Part shown: positions 1 to 57,771 of the stretch, one piece after another
Layout: every line of letters starts with the position of its first letter
Position numbering within the stretch: position 1 is the first letter of the stretch
NCBI RefSeq assembly: GCF_055900595.2
Contig: NZ_CM148325.1
Length of the DNA: 64,000 nucleotides
Strand: one strand, 5' to 3'
Translations under genes and position numbers: made by a program
Notes under the pieces: generated by a model
Told to the model about the DNA's origin: nothing
Seen by the model: only the letters and a program-made list of their open reading frames with translations
Databases searched by the model: none

Positions 1-881
1 AGCTCGCTTACCACGCGGTTTAAACGGTCGGCTTCTTTCGCCATCACCTGCGCCAATTGATGTGCTTCTCCTCCTGCTGGTGCGCGTTCGGCAAAATATT
101 TCGCCAGCCCTTTAATCGAGGAAAGAGGGTTACGGATTTCATGGGCGACGCCTGCGGCCAGATGTCCCAGCGCCACCAGCTTCTCTTTGCGCTTCATTTC
201 ATCCTGTAACAGCTGGCGCGAGCGAAGATAGCGGCGATACCAGAAGAATGACAACACGCTTGCCAGCAAGACCGTCGCCAGGGCGAAGAGGATAATCAGG
301 GTGTTTCTCTGCTCACGCTCTTCGGCACTCACAATGTTACTGGCGTCGAAAGCGATAAAAATTGCTTGTGGTGTCGTGGCATACTGCTGCATATGGCGCA
401 TCCGGTGCATTCCAGCAGCAAACATCGGTTGAAACTGGCGATAAATTTCCAGAACAGGCTCGCCGTCTGCGCTATCGATCCGCCGCCACGCTTCTTCGTC
501 TCCCGGATGTAACTGCTGCATTTCCTGCGGGGAATAAAGCTGTTTTCCCACCATGCCGGAGTTGCTATGCATCACGATTGTTCCTTGTTCATCCGTGACC
601 GCAAACCAACGCACTCCTGGCTGCCCAGCCATTTCTTCCAGTAAAGCCTGCTGCTGCGCATGATGCATGCGCATCCCCATACCGACGCGCGAGCCGGATT
701 CGAGAGCGCGGATAAGTACACTGCCTTTTTCCAGCAGAGTTTGTCTGGCGGCGGCAGTCTCGCGCCCATAATCGCGAATCACGGTCACCGCAAACAACCC
801 CACCAGTCCAACAATGACTACGGGAAGGATCGCGCTTAACCATTTTGCTAAGGCATCTTTTGATCGCTGCATAAAACGCAT
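1..881 (-). CDS. zraS: Sensor histidine kinase ZraS (HydH), N-terminal part; gene continues beyond window start
   Basis: Minus-strand reading from ATG at 881 gives [14 protein letters not shown]..., matching remembered ZraS N-terminus; open to position 1. Confidence 0.85.
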
Positions 882-910
882 CTTCTTCTTTGCCTGTTCA
901 TCCCTTTTTG

Positions 911-928
911 ACAGCAGAAATCATGCCA
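911..928 (-). promoter_or_regulatory. Candidate sigma54 promoter for zraS
   Basis: Minus strand reads TGGCAT-N5-CTGCT (GG-N10-GC spacing) upstream of zraS start. Confidence 0.5.
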
Positions 929-979
929 TCTTTTATTAGCACTTACCCTGCGCTTTAACACAAAGGCTTAAGTTTCAAT

Positions 980-1025
980 GAGTAAAAATGACTCGCTACA
1001 CACAGCAGGCGAGTCATTTTTACTC
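980..1025. promoter_or_regulatory. Perfect 17-bp inverted repeat, candidate ZraR enhancer-binding site
   Basis: GAGTAAAAATGACTCGC / GCGAGTCATTTTTACTC separated by 12 nt, centred in the divergent zraS-zraP intergenic region. Confidence 0.65.
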
Positions 1026-1067
1026 GTTTATCATGTCATATTGCCCGTCATATCAGCGTTTCGCCGT

Positions 1068-1083
1068 TGGCACGAAAGATGCA
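1068..1083 (+). promoter_or_regulatory. Candidate sigma54 promoter for zraP
   Basis: TGGCAC-N5-ATGCA (-24 GG / -12 GC) about 35 nt upstream of the zraP ATG. Confidence 0.65.
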
Positions 1084-1118
1084 ATACCCAAAGTAAGACA
1101 ACCACTGGAGGATTAACC

Positions 1119-1538
1119 ATGAAACGGAACACGAAAATTGCCCTGGTGATGATGGCGCTTTCAGCAATGGCGATGGGATCGACATCTGTATTTGCTCACG
1201 GCGGACACGGTATGTGGCAGCAAAATGCCGTGCCTTTGACCAGCGAACAACAGACAGCGTGGCAGAAAATCCATAATGACTTTTACGCTCAAAGCAGCGC
1301 ACTGCAACAGCAACTGGTGACGAAGCGTTATGAATACAATGCCCTGTTAGCCGCGAACCCACCGGATAGCAGCAAAATTAACGCGGTCGCCATAGAGATG
1401 GAGAATTTGCGTCAGTCGTTAGATGAGTTACGGGTGAAACGAGATATTGCGATGGCTGAAGCGGGTATTCCGCGCGGTACCGGAATGGGTTACGGCGGCT
1501 GCGGTGGTGGCGGTCATATGGGTATGGGCCACTGGTAA
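1119..1538 (+). CDS. zraP: Zinc resistance-associated periplasmic protein ZraP
   Basis: MKRNTKIALVMMALSAMAMG... signal peptide, Gly/His/Met-rich C-terminus; GGAGG RBS at 1106-1110; the ORF-track start at 978 is an upstream in-frame extension through the promoter. Confidence 0.9.
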   Translation: MKRNTKIALVMMALSAMAMGSTSVFAHGGHGMWQQNAVPLTSEQQTAWQKIHNDFYAQSSALQQQLVTKRYEYNALLAANPPDSSKINAVAIEMENLRQSLDELRVKRDIAMAEAGIPRGTGMGYGGCGGGGHMGMGHW

Positions 1539-44741: not shown

Positions 44742-45956
44742 TTACCAGTTCCACAATGTGCCATCTTCCAGTCGTGCGACGGGGAGATACGCCGGGTCAT
44801 ACGGATATTTCGCCGCCAGTTTCTCATCGAAAGAAATACCCAGCCCCGGTTCATCGCCTGGGTGCATATAACCTTCATCGAAGCGCCAGCTGTGCGGGAA
44901 GACTTCAAGCATTTGTTCGGAATAGCCCATGTACTCCTGAACACCAAAGTTTGGCACCCAGAGGTCAAAATGCAGCGCCGCCGCATGACAAACAGGCGAT
45001 AAATCTGAAGGGCCATGCGAACCGGTACGTACCTGATAAAGCGATGCAAAATCGGCAATCCGTCGCATCCCGGTAATGCCGCCTGCATGGGTAATCGTCG
45101 TGCGAATATAGTCAATCAGCTGCTCTTCGATTAACTGCTTGCAGTCCCAGATACTGTTAAACACTTCACCGACCGCAATCGGCGTCACAGTATGCTGGCG
45201 AATCAGACGAAAACATTCCTGGTTCTCGGCAGGCGTCGGATCTTCCATCCAGAACAGGCGGTAATCCTCTATGCTCTTCCCAAAGCGTGCCGCTTCGATA
45301 GGAGTCAGGCGATGGTGCATGTCATGCAACAGATGTTCGTTAAAACCGAACTTATTACGCACCGCTTCAAATAACTTCGGTGTAAAATCGAGATACTTTT
45401 CTGAAGACCACAACTGCTCTTCCGGCCACAGGCCTTTGGTTGCCGGTTCATACGCCAGTCCTTTGCCCTTCGCCAGGCCATAAGTGGTTTGCATACCCGG
45501 TACACCGCACTGCACACGAATCGCCTTAAAGCCCATCTGCTGGTGCTTTGCATAGTCTTCAAGGACTTCATCAATCGTGCGCCCGGTGGTGTGGCAATAA
45601 ACCATCACGCCTTCACGAGAAGCCCCACCAAGCAGTTGATACAATGGCATATTTGCCGCTTTGGCTTTGATATCCCACAACGCCATATCAATGGCAGAAA
45701 TGGCCGACATCGTGACGGGGCCACGTCGCCAGTAAGCACCTTTATAAAAGAATTGCCAGATATCTTCGATACGACTGGCATCGCGGCCAATTAATTGTGG
45801 ACAAAGATGATCTTTCAGATAAGAAGCGACCGACAATTCGCGACCATTTAATGTGGCATCTCCCAATCCACAAAGTCCGCTTGCAGTGGTTATTTTAAGC
45901 GTAACGAAATTACGTCCTGGGCAAGTAACAAAAACATCTGCAGCAATAATTTTCAT
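44742..45956 (-). CDS. Enolase-superfamily dehydratase, mannonate dehydratase (ManD)/RspA-like subgroup
   Basis: 404 aa from [24 protein letters not shown]...; AGGAG RBS 9 nt upstream; ORF track begins 20 codons earlier. Confidence 0.8.
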
Positions 45957-46346
45957 TATTGCAATCTCCTGTGTTGTAAATAGACGCTTCAAACTTAATT
46001 TTACGCCTACTACCATACAAGAGAGAAAGAGCGATTATTCAACCGTGATCACATTAAAAATAAAAATTTCCACCGAGGAACAAAAATATCCTCAAATCTC
46101 ACCTACACTATTAACTACCATCGTTAAAACAACGTGTTAAATAATCACATAACAAATTCCTTTAAGGAAGGGAGTTATAACAACAACAAAAGATAATCAT
46201 ATTTTACTTAATTCAATACGTATCGATAGGTTTATTTAAAAAGGATTTTTCGGAATGAGAGATGAAAAGAAGATACACAAGCAGGAAGAAATACGATTAA
46301 TATTAGTTGCGGTAAGGGTAGCCGTTCCTCCCTTCCGCAACCCATT

Positions 46347-46443
46347 AACCGTTGAAGTCACAGACTATTTCAGGCATTTCTCAACTCAAAATAACGACAG
46401 CCAACGTGAACTTTATGGCTCTCCAGGATCTGCTTTGTTTTCC
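46347..46443 (+). repeat. Diverged copy of the oxyS 3' portion (oxyS-like remnant), direct orientation
   Basis: ACCGTTGAAGTCAC...TTTCTCAACTC...AGCCAACGTGAACTTT...CTCCAGGATCTGCTTTGTTTT aligns with oxyS 43258-43347 at roughly 80% identity by eye; terminator stem not conserved. Confidence 0.7.
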
Positions 46444-46444
46444 A

Positions 46445-47923
46445 TCAAACAACGGAGCTCAGCGCACTGGCTACCTGTTTAAAGCGAGCAAACCGTCGCC
46501 TGAGCATGTGTGCTTTTTCTACATTCGGTTCAAGACGAATCACGTTGAGCTGCGTAGCCTTCATGGCCTGTTTGAATCCAGAATAAGCCCCTCCTCCTAC
46601 TGCCGCACACATTGCAGCCGCTCTACAACCTGACTGTTCAATATCGACAATTTCAAGAGGCATTTTGCTGGCATCACAAAACATCTGCATCCAGATTCTG
46701 GAATGCGTTGGCCCGCCAGAGAAACGAATCGTTTGCAATGACTTATCAATCTCAATAAGACGGTCCTGATGCAACAAATGAGAAAAGACAATGCCCTGAT
46801 AAATAGCGTACACCAAATCTTCTCTTTTATGATGCCCACACAGCCCCAAAAATCCCCCGCTTAATGCCTCATGGTAATTCGAGCCAAACAACCACGGGAA
46901 AAAGAGAATATCATTCTGCTTCTCATACCCTCGTTCCACCCACTCATTAATCACCCGATAACTGTCAGGAAGATCCGGTAAAAATTGCTGCAAGAACCAT
47001 GTCAAATTACTGGCTGATGTAGGGCTTCCCTCATGGGCGAAAAATGTACCTGGAATGCTAAATTTCCCCCATACATAGGGATAATCAGAAGGAATAATGC
47101 GATCAAAGATTCGCGTTGCAATTGACCAGGTGCCAGCAACCGCACTTAACGTTGTACTGTCATAGATGCCAGAAGTGAGCGCCGCACCAACGACATCAAA
47201 AACACCACCAAAAACAGGCGTTCCGGCGAGAAGCCCACATTGGCTGGCTGCTTCAGATGTCACAAACCCAGCTAAATCAGCGGAGCCAATAATATCGGGA
47301 ACCTTACCCGCAACTTCCTTAATCTCAAATAGGCGAAAAAGTTCAGCATCATAAGCACTGGTATATTGATTATAAAAATTACTGCCTGAAATATTGGTTT
47401 CTTCACAAGCCAGTTTGCCAGTAAGCCGTGAACGTATGTAATCATGAACCATCAAAATGGTTCCGATGCGGCCATAATTGTCAGTCTCATGTTTTTTCAA
47501 CCAATGCAATAGTGCTACAGGGTGCGATGGCCAGAGCTGTTGCAGACTACGGTGATAACTTTCGCGGTCAATTCCTTGTTCTTTCCAGCTTGCAACCAGT
47601 TGTTGTGCGCGAGAATCAGAGGAAACAATGCCGTGTCGTAAGGGCTTACCTTGCCGGTCGAGCAGGTACAAACCTTTACCATGAGCAGAAAAACTGATGC
47701 CATCAATCTGACTCGCAGTAATATTGTTATCTGACATCGACAGTGAAATGACCTGGCACGTTACCTTCCATAACGCCTCCATGTCGCGTTCGCAAAAACC
47801 AGGACATGGGCTTAACAGAGGTAACGCCTGCGAAGAGACACCTATTTCACGTCCTTCTGCCGTATAAATTCCCGCTTTGGTTTCTGTACCACCTAAATCG
47901 ACACCAATAAAATACCGCTCCAT
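46445..47923 (-). CDS. FGGY-family carbohydrate kinase, L-xylulose/3-keto-L-gulonate kinase (LyxK)-like
   Basis: 492-aa ORF; N-terminal FIGVDLGGTETKAGIY and C-terminal FSGGPTHSRIWMQM actin-fold motifs. Confidence 0.8.
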   Translation of the reverse strand: MERYFIGVDLGGTETKAGIYTAEGREIGVSSQALPLLSPCPGFCERDMEALWKVTCQVISLSMSDNNITASQIDGISFSAHGKGLYLLDRQGKPLRHGIVSSDSRAQQLVASWKEQGIDRESYHRSLQQLWPSHPVALLHWLKKHETDNYGRIGTILMVHDYIRSRLTGKLACEETNISGSNFYNQYTSAYDAELFRLFEIKEVAGKVPDIIGSADLAGFVTSEAASQCGLLAGTPVFGGVFDVVGAALTSGIYDSTTLSAVAGTWSIATRIFDRIIPSDYPYVWGKFSIPGTFFAHEGSPTSASNLTWFLQQFLPDLPDSYRVINEWVERGYEKQNDILFFPWLFGSNYHEALSGGFLGLCGHHKREDLVYAIYQGIVFSHLLHQDRLIEIDKSLQTIRFSGGPTHSRIWMQMFCDASKMPLEIVDIEQSGCRAAAMCAAVGGGAYSGFKQAMKATQLNVIRLEPNVEKAHMLRRRFARFKQVASALSSVV

Positions 47924-47939
47924 GATCCCTCCTTAGTTT

Positions 47940-48803
47940 CTAAATATTATCCCAGCCGGCAAAGCGCATTTTCTCTTCAATCCATTGACGTGCATGAATA
48001 ATTTCTAATAGAGGTTCCGTCGCTTTTTCTGTCCACATTTCTATCAGAAACGTTCCGCGATAATTAAGATTACGCAGGATCTTAAATAATTTAATAAAAT
48101 CTACACACCCTTCACCAAAAGGAACGTCACGAAATTGCCCTGGAGAATCAGGCGTTACTGGGTACGTATCTTTAAGATGGATTGCGGCAATTCGATCAAT
48201 CCCCTTTACCAGCTCACTTTCCAGTTCATTACCCCATGCGGTCAGATTGCCAACATCCGGATAAACGGTAAACCAAGGGGAATTAATTTTTGTATCCAGG
48301 ACTTTCCATTTACTAATAGAATTAATAAATGGCGTATCCATGATCTCTACAGCACACATAACTTGTGCCGCTGCGGCCTGTTCAGCTGTCCAGGCCATCG
48401 CATCTTCAAACCAGGCGATAGTTTCTTCATTCTGCGGCTCATAATAAACGTCATAGCCTGCCAGTTGGATTGTTCGAATCCCCAAATCCTGCGCCAGGCG
48501 TAACGCCTTCAACATAATCGTACGTGCCTGCTGACGAGTATCTCTATCATGGCTACCAAATGGAAAACGCCGGTGAGCAGACAGGCACATTGTCGGAATA
48601 CGGATCCCCGTTTGCTGAATGGCGCTAATAAGCTCCATACGCTCGGTGAGCGACCAGTCCAGGCGGGCGAGTCGTTCATCATTCTCATCTACCGACATCT
48701 CAACAAAATCAAAACCGCAAGATTTAGCCAGGGCTAGTTTCTCTACCCAACTGGTATTCCTGGGTAGCGCTTTTTCATAAATACCTAACGGGTGGCGTCG
48801 CAT
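47940..48803 (-). CDS. Sugar-phosphate 3-epimerase, UlaE/SgbU-like (L-ribulose-5-P / L-xylulose-5-P 3-epimerase family, xylose-isomerase-like TIM barrel)
   Basis: 287-aa ORF with LGIYEKALP...GFDFVEMSVDE...LAGYDVYYE...GEG.VDF motifs; start overlaps upstream permease stop. Confidence 0.8.
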   Translation of the reverse strand: MRRHPLGIYEKALPRNTSWVEKLALAKSCGFDFVEMSVDENDERLARLDWSLTERMELISAIQQTGIRIPTMCLSAHRRFPFGSHDRDTRQQARTIMLKALRLAQDLGIRTIQLAGYDVYYEPQNEETIAWFEDAMAWTAEQAAAAQVMCAVEIMDTPFINSISKWKVLDTKINSPWFTVYPDVGNLTAWGNELESELVKGIDRIAAIHLKDTYPVTPDSPGQFRDVPFGEGCVDFIKLFKILRNLNYRGTFLIEMWTEKATEPLLEIIHARQWIEEKMRFAGWDNI

Positions 48804-49849
48804 TATTTTCCCTCACGAGTGATCAATTGTTGTTGAAAGATTTTCCGGCTCTTATTCATGTCACGCTGCAACTGCCATTTTTGTTTGATGAATTTAAATG
48901 CCAGTGCGGCGATCAATGTGATCCCCCATACCGCCAGATTGAAATGCAAACTAAGTCCCAACAGACTAAGGCCGGTAGCAATAACCTGAAGCACAAGTAA
49001 GGCACAAAAAACATGACTGACTTTACCCGCCCCACCGAATGGATCTGTGCCTCCCAATACAATTGCAAGAACCGTCAAGAGCAGATAGGAATCGCCATAG
49101 CCCATACGCGCCGAATTAAATCGCGCGAGCATAATAAGACCTGCTAATACACACAACATGCTGGATATAGCATATATAGCAATTAATACGCGGTCGGTGC
49201 GAATACCGCTAAACCATGTGGCGTTAATATTACTGCCACACATATAAATCGTTTTTCCCGTACGGGTTTTGCCGAGGAACAGAGCTAAAGCAACGGTGGT
49301 GACGATAAAAATTATCATCGGTACTGGGATCCCCATGATAACTTCAGACCCAATACTGCGGACTACTGGTGGCATACCACTTAAAGCTGCCCCCTTAGTC
49401 AGGTAAATACCGATACCACTAATAATGGTCATGCTACCCAATGTGACCAAAATAGGGTGAGCGCCTATATGAGAAATAATTGACCCAGTAATAGCTCCAA
49501 TGATGATGGCAATAAGCATCGCCCCGACAATAGCCAGGAAGAGCCAAAACAACTGACTACCTGTAGATGCATCTGCGGGTACATATTGAATCAACAGCCA
49601 GGCCATAAACAGGCTGGTCAGATTCGCAGTACCGATGATTGCCAGATTGAGCCCCCCGCTCAACATGGGTATAAACATCGCAAACGTGAGCAACCCAAGC
49701 TCTGGCAATTGAAATGCAATGCTCAGAAAAGTATTGCCGGTGAAAAAACGCCCCGGCATTACCAGACTAAATAACACCACCGCAATAAAACATATTGATA
49801 ATAAGCCTGAACTGGTACCATCTAGTGGAAAAAATATCCGCTTGTTCAT
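48803..49849 (-). CDS. Sugar ABC transporter permease (CUT2 / RbsC-like)
   Basis: Polytopic membrane ORF; start taken at MNKRIFFPLDG with GGAGG RBS 6 nt upstream (ORF track starts 10 codons earlier). Confidence 0.8.
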   Translation of the reverse strand: MNKRIFFPLDGTSSGLLSICFIAVVLFSLVMPGRFFTGNTFLSIAFQLPELGLLTFAMFIPMLSGGLNLAIIGTANLTSLFMAWLLIQYVPADASTGSQLFWLFLAIVGAMLIAIIIGAITGSIISHIGAHPILVTLGSMTIISGIGIYLTKGAALSGMPPVVRSIGSEVIMGIPVPMIIFIVTTVALALFLGKTRTGKTIYMCGSNINATWFSGIRTDRVLIAIYAISSMLCVLAGLIMLARFNSARMGYGDSYLLLTVLAIVLGGTDPFGGAGKVSHVFCALLVLQVIATGLSLLGLSLHFNLAVWGITLIAALAFKFIKQKWQLQRDMNKSRKIFQQQLITREGK

Positions 49850-49862
49850 TTCGATCCTCCCG

Positions 49863-50855
49863 TTAGACGAAACCAACATCAGTTTCTTTACGTTTTTTGT
49901 AATGGGTCACACAAATCGCCGAGACAATAACCACTCCAATAACGATATTGACGAAATAACTCGAGATGCCAATCAAATTAAGGCCGTTTTTAAGAATACC
50001 GATAAGAAATACGCCCATAAGCGTACCAATGACCGTACCACGTCCGCCTGATAAACTGGCACCGCCCAATACCGCTGCAGCCAGCACATCCAACTCTCCG
50101 CCAACCAATGCATTCGGCACAACTTCACTCATACGGTAAGCTTGCAGCATTCCACCAATTGCTGCAGCGGCACCAAGATAACCATAAGCAAACAGATAAA
50201 TTAGCGACACCCGAATCCCAATACGTCTTGCTGATTCGGTATTCCCTCCCACGGCATAAAGCTGACGCCCAATATGGGTTTTGTTCATTATCATCCACGT
50301 CAGAAATGCCATTCCCAGCATAACCACTAACGGTAATCCGATCTGGTAATCTTCTCCGCCAAATTCAAAACTCAGGAAAGAACGCTGCGTAATCCACCAA
50401 TCCGGTAAATCGTAAATACTGTGGCCATTAGTCAACCACATCAACATACCGAACAGTAGCGACTGCATACTAATCGTAATGATGATGGAAACGACATTAA
50501 GGTAATAAATAAGAATAGCGTTTATCAAACCAAAAATGATGCCAAGAAAAACAGCAAACACCAGACAGAAAAATGGATTTGATAGCGTTTCATTAAGCAG
50601 TAACGACGCCACAACATATTGCACAACCGAAGCTACTGCTGCAAAAGAGATATCAATTCCGCCAGTAACCAATACGACAAATAATCCGAGGGCGAAAATA
50701 CCCGTTACGGCATAACTTTCCGAGAGATCGAGCAAGTTCTGTATTGATAAAAACTCATCGCTCATGATGGAAAAAAATACCAGCATGAGAACAATGACCC
50801 ATCCTAACCAAGCTTCGACTGAACGAGGAAACCGCAGCCGCATAAAGCTAACCAT
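49863..50855 (-). CDS. Sugar ABC transporter permease (CUT2 / RbsC-like)
   Basis: 330-aa polytopic membrane ORF; start overlaps the ATPase gene stop by 8 nt. Confidence 0.8.
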   Translation of the reverse strand: MVSFMRLRFPRSVEAWLGWVIVLMLVFFSIMSDEFLSIQNLLDLSESYAVTGIFALGLFVVLVTGGIDISFAAVASVVQYVVASLLLNETLSNPFFCLVFAVFLGIIFGLINAILIYYLNVVSIIITISMQSLLFGMLMWLTNGHSIYDLPDWWITQRSFLSFEFGGEDYQIGLPLVVMLGMAFLTWMIMNKTHIGRQLYAVGGNTESARRIGIRVSLIYLFAYGYLGAAAAIGGMLQAYRMSEVVPNALVGGELDVLAAAVLGGASLSGGRGTVIGTLMGVFLIGILKNGLNLIGISSYFVNIVIGVVIVSAICVTHYKKRKETDVGFV

Positions 50856-52365
50856 TAATCACCTCCGCCAACTGCTGCTCGGTATAATTCGAAGGCAACA
50901 GCTCATTAATAATCTTTCCGCGCTTCATATGAAAAATACGATCGCAGTTATAATAAGCTTCTGGTGCTTCATCAGTAATTAATATCACTGAAATACCCAC
51001 ACCTGAAAGCCGATGAATAAGCTGGTAAATACTATCTTTTGCGCCAATATCTACACCTACCGTTGGCGCATCCAGAATTAAAACCTTAGGTCGTGTTAAA
51101 ATCCATTTAGCCAGGACAACCTTTTGTTGATTGCCGCCAGATAGCGTTGAAAGTGGATTATTTGGATCGGTGACTTTAATATCCAAATCCTGGATCCACT
51201 CCTTGACTAAGGTTTCTTTTCGATTTTCATCAATAAACCCCGATGCCGTCTTTAAACGATCCAGAATCGAGAGCACCATATTATCGCTGATAGATTGGGG
51301 TAATACGGCCCCCAGTGTCAGGCGATCTTCTGAAACATATGCTATTCCCAGTTTTACCGCATGCGTGTTGTCTTTAATTGTAACGGGCTTACCTTCCAGA
51401 TAAATATCACCACTATCTGGTCGAGTAATACCGAAAAGACTCAATGCTAATTCAGTTCTCCCCGCACCAAGTAAACCACACAATCCCAGAACCTCGCCCT
51501 GGTGTAGTTTTAGAGAAACATCTTCAAATTGCCCTTTTCTGCATAATTTGTTTAGTTCAAGGACTACTTTGCCTTCAACGCTATTTGGTAGCTTCTTCTG
51601 GTGGACTATAGTTTTTCCGGTCATTAACTCAGTAATATCGCCCGGAGAAAGTTGATTGGCAGCCCACGTTCCAATTATCTCTCCATCACGGATGACCGTA
51701 ATCCGATCTGAAATTTCCTTAACTTCATCAAGGCGGTGGCTAACAAAAACTACGGTAATATTTTTATCGCGTAAGTAATTCACTGTGCGTAGTAATTGAT
51801 TAACTTCTGTACGCGTCAATGATGCCGTTGGCTCGTCCATGATGACTAAGCGGGCATCGGCAATCAGAGCCCGGCAAATCGCGACCTGTTGGCGTTGTGC
51901 AATCGGCAAATGTTGTACTAACGCATCAGGATCGAGATTGAATTGCAGCTCCTGAATTATTTTCTGCGATACATCTCGAAGTTGTTTTTTTCTGTGCAGC
52001 CCTAAATATCCCTTCAGGTTGTATTCAAAAGCGATATTTTCAGCAACAGAAAGATTTGGGAATAAAGAAAGATCCTGATATATCACCTGAATACCCAGTT
52101 CCCGAGCTTTATCAGGAGAAAGACGAGTCCAGGACTTACCATCTATAATAATTTCACTTCCCGAATCAGGGACATAAACACCACACAGCGTTTTGATCAG
52201 AGTACTTTTACCACACCCATTCGCACCAGCAAGACAATGAACCTCACCTTTATTTAAGGTAAGATTGATATTCTTTAGAGCCCTATGGCCACCGAAACTT
52301 TTCGTTAGTGACCTTAGCGTCACTAATGGTTGCTCCGCATTCTTCTCTATAATATGAGGCATCAT
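50848..52365 (-). CDS. Sugar ABC transporter ATP-binding protein with two fused nucleotide-binding domains (RbsA/MglA-like)
   Basis: 505-aa ORF; Walker A GANGCGKST in the N-terminal domain, ABC signature LSGGNQQKVVLAKW in the second. Confidence 0.85.
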   Translation of the reverse strand: MMPHIIEKNAEQPLVTLRSLTKSFGGHRALKNINLTLNKGEVHCLAGANGCGKSTLIKTLCGVYVPDSGSEIIIDGKSWTRLSPDKARELGIQVIYQDLSLFPNLSVAENIAFEYNLKGYLGLHRKKQLRDVSQKIIQELQFNLDPDALVQHLPIAQRQQVAICRALIADARLVIMDEPTASLTRTEVNQLLRTVNYLRDKNITVVFVSHRLDEVKEISDRITVIRDGEIIGTWAANQLSPGDITELMTGKTIVHQKKLPNSVEGKVVLELNKLCRKGQFEDVSLKLHQGEVLGLCGLLGAGRTELALSLFGITRPDSGDIYLEGKPVTIKDNTHAVKLGIAYVSEDRLTLGAVLPQSISDNMVLSILDRLKTASGFIDENRKETLVKEWIQDLDIKVTDPNNPLSTLSGGNQQKVVLAKWILTRPKVLILDAPTVGVDIGAKDSIYQLIHRLSGVGISVILITDEAPEAYYNCDRIFHMKRGKIINELLPSNYTEQQLAEVING

Positions 52366-52392
52366 AATATTCCTGAATACGACTAAAGGAAT

Positions 52393-52412
52393 TCCGGGTC
52401 AAATTTGACCCG
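52393..52412. promoter_or_regulatory. Perfect 20-bp palindrome (intercistronic stem-loop) between binding-protein and ATPase genes
   Basis: CCGGGTCAAATTTGACCCGG within the 63-nt gap. Confidence 0.5.
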
Positions 52413-52428
52413 GTGATTTACAGTAAAA

Positions 52429-53433
52429 TTACAAGCCTAGCTTCACTAAACGTCGTGTATTTTCAAGATCGAGCTTTTCTGGATTATCACTATAAATAGT
52501 GTTGTTATTAACCTTGATCTCGCCCATATCACCGATTTTTACACCGTCTTTAATAGGTTCACCGTTCATCATTGCCGTCGCAACCTGGACAAAAACCTTA
52601 CCCGCAATCATAGGGTTTGAAATATATCCCCCATCAATGGCACCTTTTTCGAGTAGCTTAATTCCCTGACCTGGAGTGAAGGTTCCAAAAACGCAAATTG
52701 CATCATTTTTCTTCCGCTTATCAATAGCACGCCCCGCACCAATTGGTCCTTGTGAACCAAATGACATAATGCCTTTAAGATCTTTATATTTAGACATTAA
52801 ATCGTTCGTCGTGCGCATTGAATCATCCACCGACTCAGCAACACCAAAACGATCTTCAACCAACGTCATATTTGGATAATGTTCTTTTTGATAGGCAATC
52901 GCGGCATTGGCCCAGTCATTTACCAAAGGCACAGTCAGACTGCCGACAAACATGGCGTATTTACCTTCTTCGCCCATACACTTCGCCATATCTTTCATAT
53001 GATTGGCACCCATTGTCTGGGTATTTAACAACTCAAAATCCCAATCTGCATTTTTTTGATCTGGTGATTCGTGGGTAATAACTTTAATACCGGCTTCTTG
53101 TGCACGCTTAAGTACAGGTTCAAGAACCTTTGCATCGTTAGGAACAACACCAATAACATCCACTTTTCGTGCAATTAAATCTTCAATCGCCCGAACCTGT
53201 TCAGCTGGATCTGCCGTTGTAGGGCCGACCTGCCATGCATCAACCCCCAATAGTTTTCCTTCATTTTTAATGCCTTGTTCCATCACATTAAACCAGGGAA
53301 TTCCACCGACTTTTACTACTACCCCCATCGTAAAAGGTTTATTCGCTTTTTGTGATGTTACAGTCTGATCAGCCCATGCAGCAGTGGAAGATAATACGGT
53401 AGCAATAAGGCAGGGTAAGATTAATTTTTTCAT
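52429..53433 (-). CDS. Periplasmic sugar-binding protein (type I PBP, RbsB-like)
   Basis: 334-aa ORF with signal peptide MKKLILPCLIATVLSSTAAWA; first gene of the ABC operon. Confidence 0.85.
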   Translation of the reverse strand: MKKLILPCLIATVLSSTAAWADQTVTSQKANKPFTMGVVVKVGGIPWFNVMEQGIKNEGKLLGVDAWQVGPTTADPAEQVRAIEDLIARKVDVIGVVPNDAKVLEPVLKRAQEAGIKVITHESPDQKNADWDFELLNTQTMGANHMKDMAKCMGEEGKYAMFVGSLTVPLVNDWANAAIAYQKEHYPNMTLVEDRFGVAESVDDSMRTTNDLMSKYKDLKGIMSFGSQGPIGAGRAIDKRKKNDAICVFGTFTPGQGIKLLEKGAIDGGYISNPMIAGKVFVQVATAMMNGEPIKDGVKIGDMGEIKVNNNTIYSDNPEKLDLENTRRLVKLGL

Positions 53434-53461
53434 CGTAATTTCCTTAAGAAATAGTTCAGGT

Positions 53462-53493
53462 GTCAGGAAAACTCGATATAATATCGACCTGAC
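53462..53493. promoter_or_regulatory. Nested inverted repeats in the binding-protein promoter region, candidate operator for the adjacent DeoR regulator
   Basis: GTCAGG-AAAAC-TCGATATAATATCGA-C-CTGAC, 36 nt upstream of the binding-protein start. Confidence 0.35.
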
Positions 53494-53555
53494 TATTTAT
53501 ATAATTTATAATCCCTTAGGCATTGATTAATAATTTAGACAATAAATAACGCCTA

Positions 53556-54365
53556 TTATTTATCAACCTCCACAATGTTTAATTGTGGAAATTGTGTTCG
53601 ATACCGAGTATCTGTACAAACATTAGTCACCAGAATATCGATTTCATCCAGCGTGCATATTTTACTAAATGCATACTGTTCAAACTTAGTGGAGTCGACC
53701 AGCAATATTTTTTGTCCTGACACCTGAAGCATCACCTGTTTAAGTCTGGCATTAATTTCACTGCCATCGCGGACACCATTCCCCAGATTCAACCCCTGGC
53801 ATGAAAAGAAAAAACTGTTGATTTGAAAATTTCGGATCGCACTCTCTGCAACCGGGCCATGAAAATCATCATGTCGCTCAGAATACTCACCACCGATACC
53901 AATAATTCGAACTCGATCACGGCAAGCTAACGCCTGAATTATCCGTAATGAATTTGTAACTACGGTAACATCTATATCGGGAATTTGACGAGCTAAAAAC
54001 CAACAAGTACTACTGTTATCCATTAAAATACAATCACCAGGGTGAATAAATTGCAATGCGGCCTTCGCAATTCTGGCTTTTATATCAGGATTTTCTTCAG
54101 TCCGTTTACGGAATGATTCCGCACGATCGATACTATTATCTTGCCACGCATTATCGGCGAGCATAACCGGAGCGCTATCAGATGAATCCAGAGCGACCGC
54201 GCCACCAAAGCTACGGATTAACTTTTTGTTGCGCTCCAGTACCGTTAAATCCCGACGAATTGTCTCAGGAGACGCTTTAAATAATCGTGATAATTCAGTT
54301 ACCCGCACAGCACCTTGTTTTTGTACATGTGCGCATATCATTTTATGGCGCTCTGCCTGCAACAT
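53556..54365 (-). CDS. DeoR-family transcriptional regulator
   Basis: 269-aa ORF with N-terminal HTH (VRVTELSRLFKASPETIRRDLTVLE) and C-terminal DeoR sugar-binding domain. Confidence 0.85.
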   Translation of the reverse strand: MLQAERHKMICAHVQKQGAVRVTELSRLFKASPETIRRDLTVLERNKKLIRSFGGAVALDSSDSAPVMLADNAWQDNSIDRAESFRKRTEENPDIKARIAKAALQFIHPGDCILMDNSSTCWFLARQIPDIDVTVVTNSLRIIQALACRDRVRIIGIGGEYSERHDDFHGPVAESAIRNFQINSFFFSCQGLNLGNGVRDGSEINARLKQVMLQVSGQKILLVDSTKFEQYAFSKICTLDEIDILVTNVCTDTRYRTQFPQLNIVEVDK

Positions 54366-54744
54366 AGTATCGGTCCGTTATTATCAAATTAGCATGCTTA
54401 TATAATTAACTGTTCCCTCATAAAATAAAGTGATAGGAATCAAGATTCATTTTATAATTATAATCGCAAACAGGAATGGTGATCTTTATCACAAATTAAA
54501 TTGAGAACACTCTACTATTTGACATTACTTTGAGATATCGGTCACTAAATAAGTCTTATTCTGCCATCTAACGAAAAATTTAAATACAAAAACAAAAATA
54601 ATCGGGCATAGCAATCGCTTCCATTCATGACCGAATACGCCCGAATAAAACCGTTTATACCCACTTATCCTCTTTCGTTGCCTTCTTACATGCCTTGAAT
54701 ATTTTACATTTCTTATATTCAGCGTAATTTAGGAAACATAATTT

Positions 54745-54816
54745 ATGAGCAAAAAAAGCCCAAACTCAAAAGTTAAAGTTTATTTATATAATACATACAG
54801 ATTATCGTGGAGTTAA
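54745..54816 (+). CDS. Candidate 23-codon upstream ORF ([23 protein letters not shown])
   Basis: AGGAAA 8 nt before the ATG; TAA stop ends 2 nt before the 4-epimerase ATG; no homology claimed. Confidence 0.25.
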
Positions 54817-54818
54817 AA

Positions 54819-55511
54819 ATGGATATGCTAAAGGAAAAAGTTCTTGCTGCGAATTTATCATTACCCCTTCATCAGTTAGTGACGTTTACCTGGGGAAATG
54901 TTAGTGGTGTTGATCGCGAAAAAGGTGTCATGGTTATTAAACCTTCTGGGGTCGAATACAGCCAAATGGGCATTGCAGATATGGTGGTAGTGGATTTACA
55001 AAGTGGTGAAGTTATTGATGGACACAGGAAACCCTCTTCAGACACCGATACTCATCTGGCGCTATACCGTGCTTTCCCGGATATTGGTGGTATCGTTCAT
55101 ACCCATTCCCGACACGCCACAATATGGGCTCAGGCCGGAAAAGATCTCACGGCCTTTGGGACAACCCACGCTGATTATTTCTACGGCACTATCCCCTGTA
55201 CACGCCCCATGAAGGATGACGAAATTAATGGACAATATGAATATGAAACGGGGCGAGTGATTATTGAAACGTTCAGACAACGAGAAATATCTCCCGCTGA
55301 CATTCCGGCTGTTTTAGTAAACAGTCATGGCCCCTTTGCCTGGGGAACTGATCCCGCGAACGCCGTGCATAACGCCGTTGTACTTGAAGAAATTGCCTAT
55401 ATGAATCTCTTTACACAACAACTACAGCCCCATCTTACGGCTATTCAACAGCCTCTACTGGATAAGCATTTTTTACGCAAGCATGGTGCCAATGCTTATT
55501 ACGGGCAGTAA
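54819..55511 (+). CDS. Class II aldolase-family L-ribulose-5-phosphate 4-epimerase (AraD/SgbE/UlaF-like)
   Basis: 230 aa from [34 protein letters not shown]...; GGAG RBS 6 nt upstream; HTHS and HADYFYG motifs; ORF track uses a GTG at 54807. Confidence 0.85.
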
Positions 55512-55560
55512 CCCTCTTAGCATGGCCTGGCGTTTTGCCAAGCCATAAATCGCCTAAGAC

Positions 55561-56934
55561 TTACTCCAACCGCGCCTGCGCAAAAGCAATCGCCTGCGCC
55601 ACCTGCTGCGGTGAGACGCCGCCTTTTGCCGCACGCTTGTCGAGGCACGATTGCAGCGACAGAATCGGATAGACATCTTCGCCAATCACCTGACTGAATT
55701 TCTGCAACTCACTGAGCGGCAGATCTTCCAGCGGTTTGCCCTGACGAATGGCTTCCACCACCGCTTCACCAACAATATGGTGCGCCTCGCGGAACGGCAC
55801 ACCTTTCGCCACCAGGTAATCCGCCAGTTCAGTGGCGTTCGCATACCCCTGCTGCGCCGCTTCCTGGCAACGTGGGCGTTTCACCTGAATGCCGTCCAGC
55901 ACCAGCGCCGCCATATGCAGGCAGTCCAGCCAGGTATCGAGCGCGTCGAACAGACCTTCTTTGTCTTCCTGCATATCTTTGTTATAAGCCAGCGGCAAAC
56001 CTTTCAGCGTCATCATCATGCCAGTCAACGCGCCCTGAACACGACCGCATTTACCGCGAATCAGCTCCAGCGCATCCGGGTTTTTCTTCTGCGGCATTAA
56101 TGATGAACCGGAAGTCACGCGATCAGAAAGCTCCACAAAACCCGCTTCGCCGGTGTTAAAGAAAATCAGATCTTCGGCAAAACGCGACAAATGCACCATA
56201 CCGATAGCGGCGGCAGAAAGCAGTTCCAGCACGTGGTCGCGGTCAGAAACGCTGTCGAGACTGTTACGGGTCGCCGAAGCAAAGCCCAGCCAGCCTGCTA
56301 ACTGTTCACGGTCGATTTCATAGGCCGTTCCCGCTAGTGCGCCACAGCCTAACGGGCTGACATCCAGACGCTTAAGCGCATCCTGCAAACGGCTTTCATC
56401 ACGCGCCAGCATCTCAACATAGGCCAGGCACCAGTGCGCGAACGTCACCGGTTGGGCGCGTTGCAGGTGAGTGTAACCTGGCATTACCGCGTCCTGATTG
56501 TTTTGTGCGGTTTCCACCAGCGCCGATTGCAGCTGTCGGTTAGCCGTCAGCAACTCGCTAACGGTATCCTTGCACCACAGTTTCAGATCGGTCGCCACCT
56601 GATCATTACGGCTACGCCCGGTGTGCAGTTTTTTGCCTAACTGGCCCACTTTGTCGATCAGTTTGCCTTCCACCCAGCTATGGATATCTTCGGCGTCGCT
56701 TTCAAGAATTTGTTGTGGCCTGGCGCGAACATCTTCCAGCAGCACATTGAGCGCCTCTTCCAGTTGCACCTGTTCTTCTGCGGTTAACACGCCTACCGTT
56801 ACCAGCGCTTTGGACCAGGCCACAGAGCCAACAATATCCTGCTCCGCCAGACGGTAATCAAAGCGCAGTGAGTCGTTGAATTGTTTAAACCGTTGATCTG
56901 CTGCCTGGGTAAAACGCCCGCCCCAAAGTGCCAT
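55561..56934 (-). CDS. argH: Argininosuccinate lyase
   Basis: 457-aa [47 protein letters not shown]... Confidence 0.96.
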
Positions 56935-56994
56935 AACTCTGTTTCCTTATTTTGAAATTCAATGCCGGAAAGCTACATCTCCGGCCAACAAAAC

Positions 56995-57771
56995 TTAAGC
57001 TAAAATCCGTGTACCCATCGGCATACCGTTAAACAGTGCCGGAAGCTGTTCCGCATGACGCCAGGAGGCAATATCTACCGGGCGACCCAGTGTGCGCGCA
57101 GCGTCCAGCGCCGCGTTCACTTTCACTATCATGCCGTCAGTAATAATGCCCTGCTCAATCAGTTGTTCTGCTTTCGCTGCGGTCATTTCGGCAATACGTT
57201 GCCCTTTGCCGTCGAGAATACCGCTGACATCAGAGAGCAAAATCAGATCCGCGCCCAGCGTTGCCGCCAGCGCCGTCGCCGCCTGGTCAGCATTGACGTT
57301 CATCAGTTGCCCTTCGTCCGTTACGCCAATGGAGCTGACCACTGGTAGATAACCGTTTTCCAGCAACGTGTTGATAAGCTTAGGCGAACCTGGCTGCGCC
57401 AGTCCAACATGGCCTAACTCTTCATCGAGCTGGGTCACTTTTACGCTGTCGCCGTCGCCAAGAAACAAACCTACGGCTGCAATCTGATGTTTCTTCGCCC
57501 ATGCCAGCAGGGTTTTATTTGCCGTTCCCGCCAGCGCTCCGGTGATAATGTCTATCTGATCCGCAGGCGTCACCCGCAGGCCGTTTTTCTTTTTCACCGG
57601 CAGATTCAGTCCTTTCATCAGCTCATCCACCACGCAGCCGCCGCCGTGGACAATCACCAGCGGACGCTGATGTGACTCGCGATAATTCACCAGGGCGCTA
57701 AACAGACGTTCCAGCGCCTCTTCACTATCCAGCAGTACGCCGCCCAGTTTGATAATTAATGGATTCATCAT
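56995..57771 (-). CDS. argB: Acetylglutamate kinase
   Basis: Start at [24 protein letters not shown] (258 aa); ORF track begins 11 codons upstream. Confidence 0.94.

Follow-up and report, generated by a model that had tools for sequence, protein, structure and literature searches.

The 237-bp spacer at positions 882–1118 of the 64-kb stretch of DNA analysed here (the window) lies between two divergent genes and carries a perfect inverted repeat flanked by two outward-facing promoter motifs. The control region is in itself already known and ordinary: it was characterized in 2001 and has since been confirmed by sigma54 ChIP-seq, ZraR ChIP-exo and gSELEX. What is considered here is how its parts are laid out, how far this layout is kept between genera and how the repeat is best read.

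The spacer separates zraS and zraP

Positions 882–1118 are the zraS(−)/zraP(+) spacer of the E. coli chromosome. Megablast of window positions 700–1300 (601 bp) against complete E. coli genomes found this stretch once per genome in 5,420 of 5,426 genomes, with annotated zraS and zraP, and several strains were 100% identical over all of it. In these strains, the spacer is the exact gap between the RefSeq starts of zraS (881, minus strand) and zraP (1119, plus strand). The protein read from 881 begins MRFMQRSKD... and matched the ZraS equivalog NCBIfam NF007688 with 546.7 bits (cut-off 479), even though the gene is cut by the window edge. The protein read from 1119 begins MKRNTKIAL... and matched the ZraP equivalog NCBIfam NF008584 with 272.7 bits (cut-off 200); Pfam Metal_resist was also matched. 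The regulator gene zraR is itself outside the window and, according to RefSeq, lies directly downstream of zraS in a strain with 100% identity over 700–1300. The ZraR protein (from locus L001) matched its equivalog NF007689 with 994 bits (cut-off 760) and contains the Pfam domains Response_reg, Sigma54_activat and HTH_8; a crystal structure covers the central plus C-terminal domains of ZraR (1OJL). Equivalog matches and RefSeq annotation together place zraP divergent from zraS-zraR, as in a ZraPSR locus. A dispersed repeat or the end of a mobile element (REP, MITE or IS inverted repeat) does not fit, as the median E. coli genome has the 601-bp region at a single place.

The start codon of zraP determines how much of this DNA is non-coding. 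The list of open reading frames gives 978–1538 for zraP, and the earlier note had cautioned that a frame from 978 runs through regulatory DNA. This caution was justified: the true zraP start is 1119, because RefSeq annotates it there, a ribosome-binding site lies at 1107–1112 and conservation across genera begins at 1118. Position 978 was rejected because genera differ by 11 bp in length inside 978–1118 and because the predicted zraP transcription start lies downstream of it. The 47-aa extension that a start at 978 would add had no Pfam match. For annotation, the zraP start is hence fixed at 1119, and 978–1118 is marked as non-coding regulatory DNA. The features of the region are listed in Table 1.

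Table 1. Features of the zraS-zraP control region, in window coordinates
Feature	Position	Strand	Basis and remarks
zraS 5' part (sensor histidine kinase)	1..881	−	Start codon 881-879; window opens inside gene; RefSeq in identical strains
zraS-zraP intergenic regulatory region	882..1118	.	237 bp; same length in K-12
zraSR sigma54 promoter, ATGGCATGATTTCTGCT	913..929	−	GG 927-926, GC 915-914; conserved island 911-933
Semi-conserved block, AACCCTG-N8-ACACAAAC (Escherichia, Citrobacter)	943..964	.	~−41 to −62 of zraS start
Whole enhancer (proposed)	980..1025	.	Arms 980-996 and 1009-1025 (17 bp, perfectly complementary); 12-nt spacer between them varies in sequence
Left ZraR box (predicted), GAGTAAAAATGACTC	980..994	.	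Dyad GAGT-N7-ACTC, centre 987; conserved island 979-994; under K-12 ChIP-exo peak
Right ZraR box (predicted), GAGTCATTTTTACTC	1011..1025	.	Mirror image of left box, centre 1018; conserved island 1008-1028
zraP sigma54 promoter, TTGGCACGAAAGATGCA	1067..1083	+	GG 1069-1070, GC 1081-1082; conserved island 1067-1086
zraP ribosome-binding site, GGAGGA	1107..1112	+	Sequence; conserved island 1103-1110
zraP CDS	1119..1538	+	139 aa, periplasmic ZraP; RefSeq start

Two outward-facing sigma54 promoters

On either side of the repeat, a GG-N10-GC motif faces outward toward its own gene, as expected of sigma54 promoters. Divergent promoters of this type had been proposed at 911–928 and 1068–1083, positions that cover both motifs (929–913 on the minus strand and 1067–1083 on the plus strand). 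The zraS motif, in the form TGGCATGATTTCTGCT on the minus strand, matches TGGCAYN5YTGC exactly and is one of only two such matches in the window. The zraP motif, in the form TGGCACGAAAGATGCA on the plus strand, has one mismatch to the same pattern and is not distinctive by pattern alone, with 38 one-mismatch matches in the window versus ~19 expected. Placing each transcription start 19 nt downstream of the motif centre, a rule taken from PMC4591121, predicted starts at ~902 for zraS and ~1094 for zraP, with leaders of 21 and 25 nt, respectively. No sigma70-like promoter was found in 780–1220 at the threshold of the tool, including for basal zraSR expression, and in this stretch no competing sigma70 −35/−10 promoter is needed to explain expression. 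An IHF site between the enhancer and the promoters was likewise not found, with no WATCAANNNNTTR match at one mismatch or fewer in 882–1118.

A 13-nt direct repeat, 85% identical between its copies, is also present in the spacer: one copy, ATCATGCCATCTT at 920–932, is the −24 region of the zraS promoter, and the other is ATCATGTCATATT at 1030–1042. The copy at 1030–1042 has no GG and shows no conservation beyond Escherichia. We rejected this pair as an element; it probably arose by chance.

The inverted repeat is better read as two dyad boxes

Between the two promoters, the arms GAGTAAAAATGACTCGC (980–996) and GCGAGTCATTTTTACTC (1009–1025) are complementary at 17 of 17 positions and enclose the 12-nt spacer TACACACAGCAG, so the perfect inverted repeat reported in the earlier note is present as described. 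It extends to 20-nt arms at 95% (977–996 and 1009–1028). Scanning the whole 64-kb window for perfect arms with a loop of 3–30 nt returned it as the longest perfect inverted repeat, followed by one of 12 bp, and 12 bp was also the longest repeat in dinucleotide-preserving shuffles (n = 40). The description of the arrangement as unusually clean in this sequence was, however, overstated, as K-12 and other Escherichia carry the same 17/17 repeat.

Judged by its sequence, the repeat makes more sense as a pair of 15-bp dyad boxes (GRGT-N7-ACYC) with 31 bp between their centres than as a single hairpin-like palindrome, because each arm is itself a dyad (GAGT-N7-ACTC) and because the sole covarying position is within the left box. 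At this position, 7 sequences have GAGT/ACTC and 9 have GGGT/ACCC; the observed score was reached by 4 of 500 shuffles, in a control that is lenient for related sequences. Measured from box centres, the left box is at −85 from the predicted zraS start and −107 from the predicted zraP start, and the right box is at −76 and −116 from the predicted zraP and zraS starts, respectively. Dyad-symmetric sites ~70–150 bp upstream of a −24/−12 promoter are characteristic of an enhancer, and its cognate activator, with an AAA+ sigma54-interaction domain and a C-terminal HTH, is encoded nearby by zraR.

The perfect symmetry could instead mean that a single symmetric ZraR oligomer reads the enhancer as one long palindrome, with 17-bp arms and a 12-nt spacer. 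Not only Escherichia but also Salmonella arizonae has 17/17 complementarity, in the latter via changes on both arms (GGGT...ACTC / GAGT...ACCC). Nonetheless, we consider this reading improbable: the dyad within each arm and the covariation inside the left box speak against it, the same positions compared across the arms are mostly mismatched, and the distance between the boxes is not constant among genera (30–33 bp). HydG (ZraR) was reportedly found to bind a pair of inverted repeats with 14 bp between them (Leonhartsberger et al. 2001, J Mol Biol 307:93), a description that also counts against a single palindrome and that we take to fit boxes at 979–995 and 1010–1026, 14 bp apart. Reading the repeat as two boxes, one ZraR dimer would most likely occupy each of them.

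Conservation is confined to promoters, arms and translation start

Searching one genome per species with the ZraP protein yielded 21 loci in Escherichia, Citrobacter and Salmonella. An alignment of 16 spacers (the window and 15 of the 21 loci) had a mean column identity of 68%, and its only conserved islands were 911–933, 979–994, 1008–1028, 1067–1086, 1103–1110 and 1118–1132. These correspond to the zraS promoter, the two arms, the zraP promoter, the ribosome-binding site and the zraP start. Across the window and the 21 loci, the 12 nt between the arms are free in sequence and kept in length. Conserved islands around a spacer that varies in sequence but is fixed in length are the pattern expected of protein-binding sites and promoters. 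The 11-nt core of the right box, GTCATTTTTAC, is invariant in the 21 loci and that of the left box, GTAAAAATGAC, nearly so, the only changes being one base each in E. albertii and C. youngae. The box spacing is 31 bp in the window and in 20 of the 21 loci; the sites are, as expected of an enhancer, conserved as sequence with their spacing kept across species.

This pattern also bears on the possibility that the 46-bp palindrome works through nucleic-acid structure (cruciform DNA, hairpin RNA or a terminator) and not as protein sites. Its single-strand folding is indeed strong (−18.8 kcal/mol as DNA; z = −9.1 versus shuffles). However, the palindrome is transcribed by neither promoter, as both fire away from it, and 780–1220 contains no terminator-like site, with no T-run after the stem. 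Rfam returned no family at threshold and only sub-threshold miRNA models, which are typical of any hairpin. Arm pairing across 21 sequences showed no covariation beyond shuffles: 11 of the 17 pairs never vary, the variable ones mostly break pairing, and pair 21/40 is unpaired in 13 of the 21 sequences. In Citrobacter, arm complementarity drops to 13–16 of 17 while the 11-nt cores are essentially invariant, and the stem-to-stem distance shifts by 1–2 nt between genera. Lacking a T-run, an Rfam match and covariation, the hairpin, terminator or structured-RNA reading was rejected, and we regard a structural role for the palindrome as highly improbable compared with the two protein-binding boxes.

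To the zraS side the geometry is fixed, to the zraP side it falls into two classes

A scan of metagenome contigs with GTAAAAATGAC-N19-22-GTCATTTTTAC gave at least 120 matches. Among the 80 matches listed, 75 were flanked by ZraP and/or ZraS homologues, down to ~50% and ~60% identity, respectively. The other five (L046, L060, L088, L102 and L104) were unrelated AT-rich hairpins without sigma54 context and were discarded. As this set was chosen on the cores, core conservation in it is circular, whereas the flanks, sigma54 motifs and distances are independent of the choice.

Distances were determined for 128 loci with the full architecture, comprising 83 distinct sequences. From the left box to the predicted zraS start, 83–85 bp were found in 82 of the 83 distinct sequences, and the two boxes were 30–33 bp apart across all 83. 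From the right box to the predicted zraP start, the distance was 75–76 bp in Escherichia versus 85–89 bp in Citrobacter, Salmonella and more distant genera. The difference on the zraP side is ~11 bp, about one helical turn, with Escherichia being shorter, and falls within window positions 1026–1066 and the equivalent stretch of loci L008–L023. Presence, non-randomness, selective conservation and fixed geometry of the elements are observed directly in these sequences. One metagenome contig (L145) had a 9-bp shorter zraS side; as a single case and possibly an assembly artefact, it was given no weight.

A semi-conserved block at 943–964 lies between the zraS promoter and the left box, is without counterpart on the zraP side and fades in distant zra loci. 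Neither an IHF consensus nor a sigma70-like promoter was found in the block, which may stand outside the zra system. It is possible, if rather doubtful, that the enhancer geometry is functional and asymmetric, with a zraS side that is fixed together with the 943–964 block and a zraP side that is sequence-free in two length classes. Were this the case, it would imply looping that depends on the face of the helix, and an unrecognized element, either architectural or a basal promoter, by which autoregulation of zraSR is tuned independently of zraP output.

Published data place sigma54 and ZraR on these elements

The available binding and expression data all come from E. coli K-12 or Salmonella, on identical or near-identical sequence. 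The zraP-zraSR (hydHG) region of K-12 is the same locus, with a 237-bp spacer, identical arms and zraS motif and the same distances. In its zraP motif, a single base in the stretch separating the −24 and −12 elements is different (GGAAG in K-12, GAAAG here), the spacer elsewhere differs at ~5–6% of nucleotides, including two bases of the 12-nt inter-arm spacer, and the sensor domain of the adjoining zraS is of a different allele class from that in the window. The promoters given for this K-12 region in EcoCyc and RegulonDB are zraPp and zraSp.

In K-12, sigma54 ChIP-seq yielded the peaks OS38 (TTGGCACGGAAGATGCA) upstream of zraP and OS39 (ATGGCATGATTTCTGCT) upstream of zraS, with predicted starts 25 nt before zraP and 21 nt before zraS (PMC4591121). 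Sigma54 ChIP-chip in Salmonella LT2 found sites at the equivalent motifs of both promoters, and a promiscuous activator raised zraP 16-fold and hydHG 3.7-fold in this strain (PMC3844500). For ZraR, the strongest ChIP-exo peak in K-12 (peak_9, S/N 73) is at NC_000913.3 4201786–4201818 (PMC7657598 supplement). We mapped the K-12 repeat, whose arms are identical to those in the window, to NC_000913.3 4201782–4201827, with peak_9 nested inside. Knockout of zraR under zinc lowered zraP by log2 12.7 and zraS by log2 3.2 (PMC7657598 supplement). In gSELEX with purified ZraR, the spacer was the single high-affinity target, with 81 of 86 clones (PMC8249747). In K-12 or Salmonella, it has thus been demonstrated that sigma54 occupies both motifs, that ZraR occupies the repeat and that induction depends on ZraR, which bears out the ZraR-dependent enhancer architecture that the earlier note had expected at this locus.

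A second ZraR ChIP-exo peak in K-12 (peak_8, S/N 34) spans 4201673–4201698, equivalent to window positions 1109–1134 (PMC7657598 supplement). Running from +15 to +40 relative to the predicted start, it covers the zraP ribosome-binding site, the ATG and the codons that follow, where there is no ZraR box, and may represent a cross-link through a looped polymerase complex.

The same data address whether the repeat might be the site of another regulator, either a NorR-like GT-N7-AC binder or a repressor, with ZraR acting elsewhere. Each box does hold GT-N7-AC, the core that defines NorR enhancer sites (PMC2831303; PMC4987338 table), and one review gives the ZraR enhancer sequence in Salmonella as 'not known' (PMC4987338 table). 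However, the strongest K-12 ZraR peak is nested in the repeat and, in the gSELEX data, NorR selected only norR/norVW while the spacer was the single target of ZraR (PMC8249747). Moreover, among the metagenome matches listed, the double box occurs essentially only between zraP and zraS, and the zra spacer is the one place in the 64-kb window where the box pattern has no mismatch. A site for a different regulator is therefore very hard to credit, and we continue with ZraR as the protein bound at the two boxes.

Elsewhere in the window, including the surroundings of rsd, a search for further ZraR boxes gave only two-mismatch matches that are not clearly above chance; the rsd promoter has been reported to be bound by ZraR in vitro (PMC10003395). 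When the full-text literature was searched for the box sequence or for a description of a 'ZraR binding site', nothing but unrelated primers came back. A consensus ZraR box that holds across genera can now be given as GRGTAAAAATGACYC and its mirror image.

A proposed shared enhancer for two divergent promoters

We conclude that 882–1118 is, with high probability, the shared control region of the zinc- and envelope stress-responsive ZraPSR system, in which the paired ZraR boxes would form one enhancer for two divergent sigma54 promoters. In the mechanism we propose, ZraS would sense zinc, lead or envelope stress and phosphorylate ZraR, an activator of the NtrC family that has receiver, AAA+ sigma54-interaction and Fis-type HTH domains. 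The two boxes (980–994 and 1011–1025), 31 bp or ~three helical turns apart, would constitute a single enhancer. Phospho-ZraR would occupy them, most likely as one dimer each, and form an active AAA+ ring that could reach sigma54 RNA polymerase in the closed complex at either promoter by DNA looping. ATP hydrolysis would then open the promoter and lead to synthesis of ZraP and of more ZraS and ZraR. As the boxes are arranged as mirror images, the nearer box looks alike from either promoter and is at −76 (zraP) or −85 (zraS). That each box takes one dimer, that the ring assembles on the boxes, that the DNA loops and that helical phase matters is suggested by analogy with related activators.

A closely related arrangement is the NtrC enhancer at glnAp2, where two dyad sites ~three helical turns apart lie roughly 100 bp upstream of a −24/−12 promoter and NtrC activates by oligomerization and looping. 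The zra enhancer resembles it in having two dyad-symmetric sites for an NtrC-family response regulator at a distance of ~three helical turns. In contrast to glnAp2, it serves two divergent promoters, and its box is GRGT-N7-ACYC with an A-tract centre. By NCBIfam score, the closest paralogue model to ZraR is AtoC, which binds an inverted pair of ~20-bp sequences upstream of the sigma54 promoter of atoDAEB. Compared with zra, the AtoC enhancer appears to serve a single promoter and to have a different sequence. At norR-norVW, only one of the promoters is known to be sigma54-dependent. Like the zra boxes, NorR sites at norR-norVW are GT-N7-AC inverted repeats in a divergent spacer beside the activator's own gene (PMC2831303). 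NorR, however, needs three sites and has an IHF site between enhancer and promoter, whereas zra has two boxes and no IHF consensus.

Two allele classes of ZraS and other neighbouring observations

The periplasmic sensor domain of ZraS occurs in two deeply diverged allele classes in E. coli. Compared with window positions 1–700, 4,183 of the matching genomes were at least 95% identical, 1,236 (including K-12) were 60–80% identical and one was in between. The divergence between the classes is strongest at ~250–700 and does not extend beyond the periplasmic sensor domain: at the periplasmic core, only 51–56% of nucleotides are identical, with a 21-nt indel, and at the protein level the periplasmic part is 63% identical versus 98% for the cytoplasmic part. 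E. whittamii (93%) and E. albertii (84%) fall in with the K-12 class; the class in the window is just as distant from that class as from the orthologues in Citrobacter and Salmonella (66–71%). The regulatory boxes beside both classes are unchanged. No paper on dimorphism of the ZraS sensor domain was found by a full-text search of the available literature. We regard these allele classes as more interesting than the control region, as they could bear on the signal that ZraS actually senses.

ZraP is not dimorphic and is 96% identical to its K-12 counterpart, with four substitutions. It has 139 aa here and 141 aa in K-12, owing to a 2-residue deletion in the Gly/Met-rich C-terminal tail at residues ~121–123 (region of window positions 1479–1484).

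Beside argH, at ~45,800–55,511, the window contains an accessory sugar-utilization island with genes for a DeoR-family regulator, an ABC transporter, L-ribulose-5-phosphate 3- and 4-epimerases and an FGGY kinase, as well as manD. The window holds just one further exact sigma54-core match, TTGGCACCATGCTTGCG at 55,476–55,492 on the minus strand. It lies in the araD-like gene of this island, antisense within its 3' end and just downstream of argH; this motif is absent from the K-12 sigma54 ChIP-seq tables searched. Of 5,426 complete E. coli genomes, only 146 cover at least 80% of the 2.2 kb at 54,800–57,000, which span the araD-like end of the island and argH.
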